In this document: one piece after another, positions 18,053-19,362 of the stretch
Position numbering within the stretch: position 1 is the first letter of the stretch
How the letters are laid out: every line of letters starts with the position of its first letter
Virus record (IMG/VR): IMGVR_UViG_3300037804_000367
Location: 64,787 to 128,786 of that record
Reading direction: 5' to 3' (one strand)
DNA: 64,000 nucleotides
Origin: a virus
Translations under genes and position numbers: made by a program
Notes under the pieces: generated by a model
Database searches by the model: none
Seen by the model: only the letters and a program-made list of their open reading frames with translations
Told to the model about the DNA's origin: nothing

Positions 18053-18087
18053 AAAAAAGAGCGCCTTTTTATGGGCGCTCTTTTTTT
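18053..18087. terminator. intrinsic terminator closing the suppressor-tRNA/Pth2 operon
   Basis: AAAAAAGAGCGCC-loop-GGCGCTCTTTTTTT. Confidence 0.85.
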
Positions 18088-18397
18088 AGTTCATTAATTG
18101 AAACTTTCTGAAGAACTGTCTGTCGTCTCCATGAATTGGTTCCGTTGCAATAGCAGTCATTTGATTTCCAATATCTGGTTCAAAGAATGCTCTGAATTTA
18201 ACTTGCAATTTTTCAGCAATTGTTTTTAACTTGTGTTCGCTTTTTACAGTAACAATAATAACTGATGGATGTTCCTGTCCAGGTTTGATAAATGCTCGCG
18301 AAGCTTCAATTGCAGCATGTGCAGACTGTACAGCTTTTTGGGCATTTGATAAATCATTCCTAATAAGAACGTACATGTATTTTGGGACCTATGTCAT
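18086..18397 (-). CDS. Pth2-like peptidyl-tRNA hydrolase with in-frame TAG at codon 3 (MT*VPKYMYVLIRNDL...)
   Basis: YVLIRNDLSNAQKAVQSAHAAIE...FFEPDIGNQMTAIAT is a Pth2-family pattern; ATG 18397 follows GAGGT SD and directly abuts the upstream TAA; codon 3 (18389-18391) is TAG. Confidence 0.8.
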
Positions 18398-18733
18398 TTA
18401 AGCTACCTCTTCAACTTCTACAGTTTCCGAAATGACTTGATGAACTACTGCTTCAAGTTTTTTATAACTGTTACTAAATCCGTTCTTAAACTCGTTATCA
18501 TTGTGAGTATGACTTGGTTTGTTACGAAACTCATTGTAAATGATATGAAGCAACGTAAGGTTTGTTGCAAAAGAATTTGGTCTTAGTGTATTTTCTAATC
18601 TCCAATCTCCGTCTCTCTGAGCTTGTTTAAACTCAGGTTTGCGAATCTTCTGTGCTTCAGTTAGTTTTATGATTTCACTTTTTAGGGTAGAAACTACTGC
18701 TTTGTATTGTGCTCTTGTGATATTCGTATTCAT
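18398..18733 (-). CDS. hypothetical protein between leader peptide and Pth2-like gene
   Basis: 111 aa; GGAG SD; in frame with and abutting the pth2-like ATG. Confidence 0.8.
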   Translation of the reverse strand: MNTNITRAQYKAVVSTLKSEIIKLTEAQKIRKPEFKQAQRDGDWRLENTLRPNSFATNLTLLHIIYNEFRNKPSHTHNDNEFKNGFSNSYKKLEAVVHQVISETVEVEEVA

Positions 18734-18739
18734 TTTCTT

Positions 18740-18807
18740 TCTCCGAAATATTATTTAATTAAGTGTTTGTTTTTATAAAATGGGTAATCCATTTTCACTT
18801 ACGGAGA
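18740..18807 (-). promoter_or_regulatory. RBS-sequestering mRNA stem (putative translational attenuator)
   Basis: Nested pairs TCTCCG/CGGAGA (covers the SD of 18398..18733), TAAGTG/CACTTA, AAAATGG/CCATTTT. Confidence 0.65.
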
Positions 18808-18828
18808 GTTGTTACGTATCTACATCAT
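18799..18828 (-). CDS. leader peptide with TAG at codon 3 (MM*IRNNSP)
   Basis: AAAGGA SD, ATG ATG TAG ATA CGT AAC AAC TCT CCG TAA. Confidence 0.65.
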
Positions 18829-18912
18829 GATACAATTCCTTTTATTGTTGTTTTTACTTATATTAAAATCTAATACAAAGTGACACTACCTTGTACTTTT
18901 TTAATATTAAAA

Positions 18913-18985
18913 TGCCCAGTGTGGGGATCGAACCCACGTCTCAAGGATTTAGAATCCAGCGCAATAACCGCTATACTAACTGAGC
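18913..18985 (-). tRNA. amber suppressor tRNA (anticodon CUA)
   Basis: 7-bp acceptor GCTCAGT/ACTGGGC, D-loop GG, loop TT-CTA-AA closed by GGA/TCC (two upper mismatches), T arm GTGGG-TTCGATC-CCCAC; no encoded CCA. Confidence 0.85.
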
Positions 18986-18996
18986 TTAAAATTAAA

Positions 18997-19305
18997 TTAA
19001 CCTACGTGAGTAAATAATAAAGATTTTGCTTCCATTCCAAAAGCATTTTTAAATCTTTCCTTGTATTCTTCAACTTTTGAAAAATCTAAATCCTTTGACA
19101 TATTAAATCCAATATATGTATCATCATCTTCAGGACCAGATAAACAATTTTCAAACTGAACGTCAAATGCAAAATTATCTTTAAAATATTCATTATCGTC
19201 CCAAGCAGGAAGATCAGCGATTTCTCTTACAGTCAACCCAATATCCTGTACGGATCGACCAATCATTAGTACAGCTTCATACTCGTAACTCATTTCAAAC
19301 TCCAA
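18997..19305 (-). CDS. hypothetical acidic protein
   Basis: First ORF after the promoter at 19322-19362. Confidence 0.7.
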   Translation of the reverse strand: MEFEMSYEYEAVLMIGRSVQDIGLTVREIADLPAWDDNEYFKDNFAFDVQFENCLSGPEDDDTYIGFNMSKDLDFSKVEEYKERFKNAFGMEAKSLLFTHVG

Positions 19306-19321
19306 TGTTTATTAGCTCTTT

Positions 19322-19362
19322 CTTACTAATATTAATATACATCCTTAACTAGACAAGTCAAC
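19322..19362 (-). promoter_or_regulatory. sigma70-type early promoter heading the suppressor-tRNA operon
   Basis: TTGACT...GATGTATATTAATATTAGTAAG. Confidence 0.8.

Follow-up and report, generated by a model that had tools for sequence, protein, structure and literature searches.

We analyzed a 64,000-nucleotide (nt) stretch of viral DNA (referred to here as the window), which comprises positions 64,787 to 128,786 of the IMG/VR record IMGVR_UViG_3300037804_000367 and belongs to a single 128,786-bp contig with a G+C content of 34% and 30 tRNA genes; the source samples of this parent contig are seawater metagenomes. The locus in question is a minus-strand operon at positions 18053 to 19361 of the window, in which a tRNA with the anticodon CUA lies together with two genes that are each preceded by an early TAG codon, one of them encoding a protein resembling peptidyl-tRNA hydrolase 2 (Pth2). 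The operon contains the following features, given in the order of transcription:

19334-19361, minus strand: promoter-like site heading the operon (TTGACT, a spacer of 16 nt, TATATT; 10 of 12 matches)
18997-19293, minus strand: open reading frame (ORF) 98, the first gene of the transcript, starting at ATG 19293 after GGAG (102 amino acids if started from an upstream TTG)
18913-18985, minus strand: tRNA(CUA), predicted to read UAG (ARAGORN; 52.6 bits with the Rfam tRNA model)
18799-18828, minus strand: leader mini-ORF M-M-UAG-I-R-N-N-S-P-UAA, with the first gate TAG at 18822-18820
18740-18807, minus strand: RNA stem between the leader end and the Shine-Dalgarno (SD) sequence of ORF111 (predicted fold)
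18398-18733, minus strand: ORF111, a member of the X1 family according to the X1 hidden Markov model (HMM)
18377-18397, minus strand: second gate, ATG ACA TAG GTC CCA AAA TAC, with the TAG at 18391-18389 and GAGG 8 nt before the ATG
18086-18376, minus strand: predicted Pth2-fold domain, 96 amino acids from ATG 18376 (Pfam, profile, and AlphaFold2 model)
18053-18086, minus strand: intrinsic terminator, a 13-bp stem followed by a T-run, the only one found in 17800-19600

All of the operon elements that an initial annotation of this DNA had described were thus found on the minus strand, at or near the places it had given. The leader reads ATG ATG TAG ATA CGT AAC AAC TCT CCG TAA and has AGGA 8 nt before its first ATG, so that in both gates the TAG is codon 3 and the start codon lies 8 nt after an SD sequence. 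The ATG of the second gate abuts the stop codon of ORF111 (TAAATG), and its reading frame is continuous with the Pth2-like ORF.

The tRNA(CUA) is 73 nt long and folds into a cloverleaf with a short variable loop, a discriminator A, no encoded CCA, and a weak top of the anticodon stem. It is the sole stop-reading tRNA among the 30 in the genome. It lies in its own operon, apart from all other tRNA genes: 27 of the 30 form one minus-strand cluster at positions 28785-35615 of the parent contig, outside the window, and genes for tRNA-Met and tRNA-Leu(UAA) are located inside the window at 23806-23880 and 24365-24445.

Genome-wide, TAG terminates 24 of the 152 ORFs of at least 100 amino acids and is therefore an ordinary stop codon in this phage. 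When the genome was scanned for an SD sequence followed by ATG, 1 to 12 codons, TAG, and a long ORF, the Pth2-like gene was the sole real gene recovered; a second SD-positive candidate, at window position 28849, was rejected, as it is antisense to a plus-strand ORF (27618-29033) and has no start codon for 54 codons past the TAG. Five long ORFs are joined to the next by a same-frame TAG, a frequency like that of TAA and TGA junctions and with a start codon after each, and they are therefore probably the result of ordinary gene packing. Among TAG-terminated genes, those at window positions 43675, 47251, and 1922 (minus strand) are followed by a long ORF in the same frame, to which read-through would fuse them. 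The marks of genetic code 15, namely, in-frame TAGs in many genes and rarity of TAG as a stop, are absent from the 128.8-kb genome. Since TAG is an ordinary stop, no other gene is gated, and TAG junctions are no commoner than TAA and TGA junctions, the phage is not recoded, as had been stated initially for the rest of the window. In the related loci described below, the coding cover gained by reading through TAG equaled that gained for TGA, which gives no sign of recoding and is uninformative beyond that. The letters over both TAGs are identical in contigs from three other seawater runs, so that assembly errors, the concern raised by the initial annotation about these codons, do not account for them.

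If the TAGs have a function, they should recur in relatives of the operon, as the initial annotation had anticipated. In the first ten IMG/VR homologs of the enzyme (33 to 53% identity), the nearest in-frame stop upstream was a TAG in 10 of 10, located 2 to 10 codons before the domain with an ATG and 1 to 9 codons ahead of it, and several of these genes have no later start. A profile search then yielded 145 relatives, 80 of which were fetched, and the comparisons reported here were made on 57 nonredundant loci. Under a strict rule (TAG just before the Pth2-like domain, ATG 1 to 10 codons upstream), 38 of the 57 loci (67%) are gated, 34 of the 38 without a later start, compared to 35 of 995 other ORFs taken from these loci as controls (3.5%). 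This 19-fold enrichment argues that the gate is more than chance. The strict rule even undercounts, because loci L015 and L017 (3948-4000) have two in-frame TAGs in an N-terminal extension (M-R-P-F-Q-TAG-T-K-E-E-Y-G-TAG-...), i.e., a double gate. About 100 large, distant phages share the layout, which is kept down to 30% protein identity and in phages of many hosts. A narrow pattern scan of bacterial genomes gave a single match, a Saprospiraceae contig from a metagenome-assembled genome that carries the same module.

Gated genes also occur in cultured phages, namely, in GAP32 (M-A-Q-TAG), in its relatives CBB, Serratia phage BF, and Yersinia phage fHe-Yen9-04, and in Salmonella phage Arash (M-L-TAG); in the records of cultured phages, GAP32, Arash, and XacN1 among them, these genes are left unannotated, truncated, or shifted. 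In proteins of the XacN1 type, M-K-TAG precedes an additional domain at the N terminus. In XacN1 itself (AP018399.1, ∼243735-244595; locus L011), the annotated ORF364, whose protein joins an HD-like domain to a Pth2-like domain, starts four codons after an in-frame M-K-TAG. The authors of the XacN1 study could not identify targets of that phage's CUA tRNAs (PMC5852040), and by its sequence ORF364 is likely to be such a target. Database proteins of the family that begin with M-x-Q-I/V had a TAG in the DNA in all three cases checked, where gene callers had given Gln.

The sequence context of the gate codons is biased as well. A purine follows the TAG in 45 of 47 gates of enzyme genes and in 31 of 33 gates of leaders, compared to 74 of 143 ordinary terminal TAGs, and the following codon is mostly one for Ile or Val; the second gate of the window likewise has a purine and a Val codon at this place. 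A 3' purine favors amber suppression in Escherichia coli. Where relatives have internal TAGs, these are located in variable loops or columns, as would be expected of a codon that serves as a gate and not as a coding element.

The tRNA travels with the gates. In 42 of the 57 loci, a tRNA(CUA) is encoded on the same strand no more than 4 kb away, which bears out the initial expectation that homologous loci would keep it. Thirteen loci in which the enzyme gene is ungated still hold a tRNA(CUA), in many of them ∼300 nt behind the gene, and no suppressor tRNA accompanies the ungated homologs of RaK2 and L111 in their loci. In locus L115, the sequence before the Pth2-like domain (3900-4030) is M-P-T-S-D-D-R-A-L-C-TGA, and a tRNA(UCA) is located 1 kb upstream on the same strand (2962-3035). 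Stop codon and anticodon would thus have changed together, which is telling, though it is a single case.

The leader is found in relatives as well. The pattern M-x(0-3)-TAG-x(1-7)-[R/K]-x-P(P)-stop, which includes "IR..P"-type leaders like the one for which the initial annotation had suggested a search ("IRN"), occurs 33 times on the coding strand, in 30 of the 57 loci (e.g., MTH*IRSP, MS*IRSP, ME*VSRNRSP, MKH*INRPP, MM*IYRAPP, MK*IRKKPP, and MT*INIRASP, where the asterisk is the TAG). With a TAA or a TGA gate, it was counted 3 to 4 times (3 loci in either case), and a single copy with a TAG gate lies on the other strand, so that the leader family is specific both in its gate codon, TAG, and in its strand, the coding one. 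The leaders of relatives end in RAPP, RGPP, RPP, RGP, RSP, or KPP, and the window leader (MM*IRNNSP) fits the RSP-ending subgroup. A gene of 100 to 150 amino acids begins 50 to 120 nt after each leader. These genes belong to three families, X1, X2, and X3, which are mutually unrelated by profile comparison, suggesting that the leader is a portable control unit.

In the predicted fold of the window, UCUCCG at the leader end (18807-18802) pairs with CGGAGA (18745-18740), which holds the SD sequence of ORF111, and the stem continues by pairing of UAAGUG, which includes the leader stop codon, with CACUUA, plus an inner hairpin. The duplex between the leader end and the start region of ORF111 has a predicted energy of −11.3 kcal/mol (z −4.0). 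In 30 loci, base pairing between the 3' end of the leader and the start region of the following gene has a median z of −3.4 against shuffled sequences, and 22 of the 30 are below −2. The paired sequences vary by locus (TAATGATT/AATCATTA, TCTCCTT/AAGGAGA, CTCCTCC/GGAGGA, and long A/U-rich arms). The stem that had been proposed to hide the next ribosome-binding site is therefore supported both by computation in the window and by its recurrence with different sequences in related loci.

ORF111 matched the X1 HMM with 24.2 bits (E = 1.2e-6), the best score among the 700 ORFs of the genome. Searches of IMG/VR with ORF111 peptide patterns returned no relative, and the kinship was seen only with the HMM built from leader-linked genes. 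ORF111 belongs to no Pfam family; its AlphaFold2 model is all-helical, with a predicted local distance difference test (pLDDT) score of 83, and Foldseek found no match in the Protein Data Bank (PDB) and only generic helical look-alikes in the Atlas. An assignment to AHSA1 was discarded, as it rested on a single match below threshold that is not common to the relatives. A second, weaker X1 ORF (E = 1.5e-4) is located at 27661-28119 of the parent contig (minus strand), immediately adjacent to the main tRNA cluster; the motif L-T-x-L-H-I-x-Y-N is common to this ORF and ORF111, and no TAG-gated leader was seen upstream of the former.

The 96-amino-acid protein scored 21.3 bits (E = 3e-4) against the Pfam PTH2 model (PF01981), below the cutoff of 23, and its relatives reach 25 to 33 bits. 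The family profile matches solved Pth2 proteins over their full length with an E value of 1.3e-9. The AlphaFold2 model of the window protein (pLDDT 91.4) holds the Pth2 alpha/beta fold; its ten best Foldseek PDB matches are all Pth2 (2zv3, 3erj, 1wn2, 1xty, and 1q7s among them), with template modeling scores of 0.66 to 0.76. The label "Pth2-like," which had been assigned from the sequence, is thus justified by profile and modeled structure. The family is large (1,833 clusters at 50% identity match with an E value of ≤1e-10) and has an invariant motif of its own, E-P-D-I-G-N-Q, which retains the Asp (D68) known from the D-x-G motif of Pth2; behind this residue, the loop is shortened by 4 residues relative to solved Pth2 proteins. 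The position before the A-Q-x-x-H-A helix is K or Q across the family, and the Lys found there is the residue proposed to be catalytic in work on Pth2 of the archaeon Sulfolobus.

The full product is probably a 103-amino-acid protein that starts at ATG 18397 and continues through the TAG. The V-P-K-Y that follows the TAG ends in a Tyr which is kept in relatives without any internal start (...HPY, ...HFY, or ...TPY before V/M-Y-V/I), arguing that 18397 is the native start, and the position of ATG 18376 corresponds to a Val in relatives.

The Pth2-like gene of other loci is fused to, or followed by, one for an HD-like phosphohydrolase; this partner domain is absent from the genome of the window phage. 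The HD-like gene is itself TAG gated in L001 (1486-2064), L027 (3202-3765), and L093 (3381-3971), with the TAG at codons 3 to 8 and then Ile or Asn, as in M-K-TAG-I... or M-K-N-T-TAG-I.... In GAP32 (L012, 3309-3875), the HD-like gene has an internal TAG at about codon 47, and the record splits the gene into small ORFs.

Together, these data support the proposal of the initial annotation that the output of the operon depends on UAG read-through by the co-located tRNA: the conserved TAGs, the tRNA, the leaders, and the stem all point to it. We consider it likely that the operon is a translational switch run by a phage-encoded amber-suppressor tRNA, with two serial UAG gates controlling ORF111 and the Pth2-like enzyme, and that synthesis from the gated genes probably requires the tRNA to override the stop. 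A single transcript, from the promoter-like site to the terminator, would hold the tRNA(CUA) and both of its targets. At the first gate, termination by release factor 1 (RF1) at leader codon 3 would release the ribosome ∼15 nt before the stem, and ORF111 would stay silent; if the tRNA reads the UAG, the ribosome would reach Ser-Pro-UAA, linger there, and melt the stem, allowing ORF111 to be translated. The leaders of relatives end in arrest motifs of the RAPP/RGPP type, of which the window would have a weaker, Pro-stop version. At the second gate, ribosomes that finish ORF111 would restart at the abutting AUG-ACA-UAG, and a second read-through would give the full Pth2-like protein. The two gates are taken to act in series because the TAA of ORF111 abuts this ATG ACA TAG, and because a second read-through is needed, the output of Pth2-like protein should rise steeply with read-through. 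The anatomy, fold, conservation, pairing, and context bias of the cassette come from the comparisons and models themselves; the charging of the tRNA and its reading of UAG, the pause of the ribosome, and the role of the output are what we infer in this scheme. For the last of these, we favor that the Pth2-like esterase, together with the HD-like phosphohydrolase in relatives, clears groups that build up on tRNA 3' ends during UAG read-through; such clean-up would keep the suppressor and the other tRNAs usable. An esterase and a phosphohydrolase that both plausibly act on tRNA 3' ends and are dosed by read-through would fit a role in clean-up or control.

Several observations weigh against this switch. 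Because TAG ends 24 of the 152 long genes of the phage, a strong suppressor should carry a cost. The tRNA(CUA) has no close paralog among the phage's 29 other tRNAs from which its amino acid could be read, and its discriminator A and short variable loop give no answer either. Many members of the enzyme family are ungated and have plain, short N termini. The window leader (IRNNSP) is without a canonical R-A/G-P-P arrest core, the gene behind the leader varies between loci (X1, X2, or X3), and the fold of the window region has a minimum free energy of −19.9 kcal/mol with a z-score of −2.2, which is modest. Finally, ATG 18376 lies four codons past the second TAG, where reinitiation independent of the suppressor could take place. 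The initial annotation had itself named synthesis of the enzyme from this codon as an outcome that would speak against the switch; here the conserved Tyr argues for 18397 as the native start, and some restart at 18376 may still occur.

The latter point leads to an explanation that we regard as improbable, in which SD-AUG-NNN-UAG is a landing pad from which ribosomes stop and restart downstream, at ATG 18376 in the window and at the AUN or GUN codon after the TAG elsewhere, and the tRNA has some other job. It would make sense of the ATG near the second gate, of the near-cognate start codons (Ile or Val) that follow the gate in most loci, and of the TAAATG, which shows that coupling is already in use at this junction. 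However, it leaves unexplained why 38 of 57 loci use TAG although the commonest stop is TAA and why a CUA tRNA travels along or, for the TGA gate, a UCA tRNA; in addition, TAGs also occur inside the domain, some N termini have two of them, and the leaders require a ribosome at the far end of the mini-ORF. The least credible explanation is chance or decay, with a Pth2-like gene that starts at ATG 18376, a leader that is noise, and a tRNA(CUA) that is a mutated ordinary tRNA. Short ATG...TAG frames are indeed common in AT-rich DNA, and the related loci contain 394 TAG mini-ORFs, but the 19-fold enrichment of gates over control ORFs, the strand and stop specificity of the leader pattern, the persistence of the layout at protein identities as low as 30% and in phages from many hosts, and the identical letters in independent samples all contradict it. 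The divergence of the related loci also speaks against a single recent mobile element as their common source.

Nearly as hard to accept is that the phage, or a block of its genome, follows code 15 and reads TAG as an amino acid, which would make the TAGs plain sense codons. The CUA tRNA is present, and gene callers translated relatives with TAG as Gln; against this stand the long ORFs that end in TAG, the same-frame TAG junctions that are no commoner than those of TAA and TGA, the lack of any other gene with an in-frame TAG in 128.8 kb, and the coding cover, to which read-through of TAG adds no more than that of TGA. In relatives, moreover, the TAGs lie at the N-terminal edge or in variable loops and are not spread through genes. 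By analogy with the autoregulation of RF2 (prfB), the cassette might also form a closed loop with a set-point, in which the Pth2-like enzyme strips the amino acid or peptide from the suppressor tRNA, so that more read-through gives more enzyme and less charged suppressor. We hold this to be unlikely, if less so than restart at a landing pad. It would suit a self-referential cassette, since the genome's only gated genes are the cassette's own; the enzyme and the tRNA stay together even where the enzyme gene is without a TAG; and as TAG is the normal stop of so many genes, unchecked suppression should do harm. The proposed catalytic Lys of archaeal Pth2, however, is not invariant in the family, and neither the HD-like partner nor the variable X genes follow from such a loop.

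The promoter-like site sits in a 53-nt repeat with at least three same-strand copies genome-wide, which contain TTGACT and GTATATTAA and are located at window positions 19322-19374 and 3580-3632 and at ∼3784-3836 of the parent contig; the copies show 7 to 9 differences, and metagenome contigs end or branch at the repeat. By its sequence, the repeat is probably a family of phage promoters. ORF98 lies outside the conserved cassette; it has no Pfam family, and tblastn against the related loci gave one weak match only. The genes that flank the cassette likewise show no conservation together with it in related loci. Just upstream of the operon promoter, a DUF3307-family protein (E = 2.6e-8) is encoded on the minus strand (19380-19787). 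No match to the locus was obtained by blastn against GenBank phages.

Parts of the proposed switch resemble known systems. In Streptomyces, the bldA tRNA-Leu(UAA) gates genes that contain TTA codons; likewise, a dedicated tRNA here would gate few genes via one rare codon, but bldA is chromosomal and reads a sense codon, whereas here the tRNA would compete with RF1 for a stop codon, and the tRNA and its targets form one travelling cassette. The gene for RF2, prfB, is autoregulated by an early in-frame UGA and a +1 frameshift, which sense its own product. In both cases, an early in-frame stop makes synthesis depend on the efficiency of its decoding; unlike in prfB, read-through by a tRNA would be needed here, and feedback is a hypothesis. 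The lambda bar minigenes (AUG-AUA-UAA) are by-products that are toxic in pth-defective hosts. By sequence, ATG ATG TAG and ATG ACA TAG share with them the arrangement of SD sequence, AUG, one codon, and stop, as well as the link to peptidyl-tRNA hydrolysis; read-through, a suppressor tRNA, and a downstream in-frame gene have no counterpart in bar.

Two further comparisons concern stop-codon recoding and ribosome arrest. Recoded phages with TAG read as Gln (code 15) have suppressor tRNAs of their own (Borges et al., bioRxiv 10.1101/2021.08.26.457843), and no hydrolase is mentioned in that preprint. As in these phages, a phage tRNA(CUA) meets a standard-code host here, and in-frame TAGs were proposed there to delay translation until the tRNA is made; unlike theirs, the present genome is standard coded, with gate TAGs only in the leader and at codon 3 of the cassette's own genes, which would make it a local switch. 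Regulatory arrest peptides include ApdA, ApdP, ApcA, and SecM (PMC7897499, PMC10951233, PMC12992588), and RAPP and RGPP are robust arrest cores, which tolerate varied N-terminal sequences, resist elongation factor P, and occur upstream of diverse genes (PMC12992588). The leaders share with them a short upstream ORF, an R-(A/G)-P-P-like end (in relatives), and base pairing of the leader end to the start region of the gene that follows, with pausing being a prediction here; they differ in having 6 to 12 codons and a motif that is reached only past a read-through UAG, and the window leader ends in N-S-P. In a full-text literature search, no paper was found that joins a suppressor tRNA, an in-frame stop, and Pth2 in phages. 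A paper on a Klebsiella phage calls the purpose of its suppressor tRNA open.

If the switch operates as proposed, the suppressor tRNAs that appear as "orphans" in many large standard-code phages would gain a purpose and concrete targets, and the operon would be a natural example of a genetic switch that is run by a tRNA and coupled to an arrest-type leader of very short length. The arrangement also explains why gene callers truncate or miss such genes, as in GAP32, Arash, and fHe-Yen9-04. With the module present in cultured phages of Enterobacterales and Xanthomonas, it offers a tractable entry to the origin of stop-codon recoding and possibly compact parts for synthetic biology. A further, tentative idea, which we think rather doubtful, is that the cassette controls by itself what UAG means, with the gated Pth2-like enzyme, joined in relatives by the HD-like enzyme, acting on the suppressor tRNA itself as a set-point or switch for read-through. 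If this were true, a standard-code phage would run a measured, partial "TAG = amino acid" state, which might be a seed of full TAG recoding.

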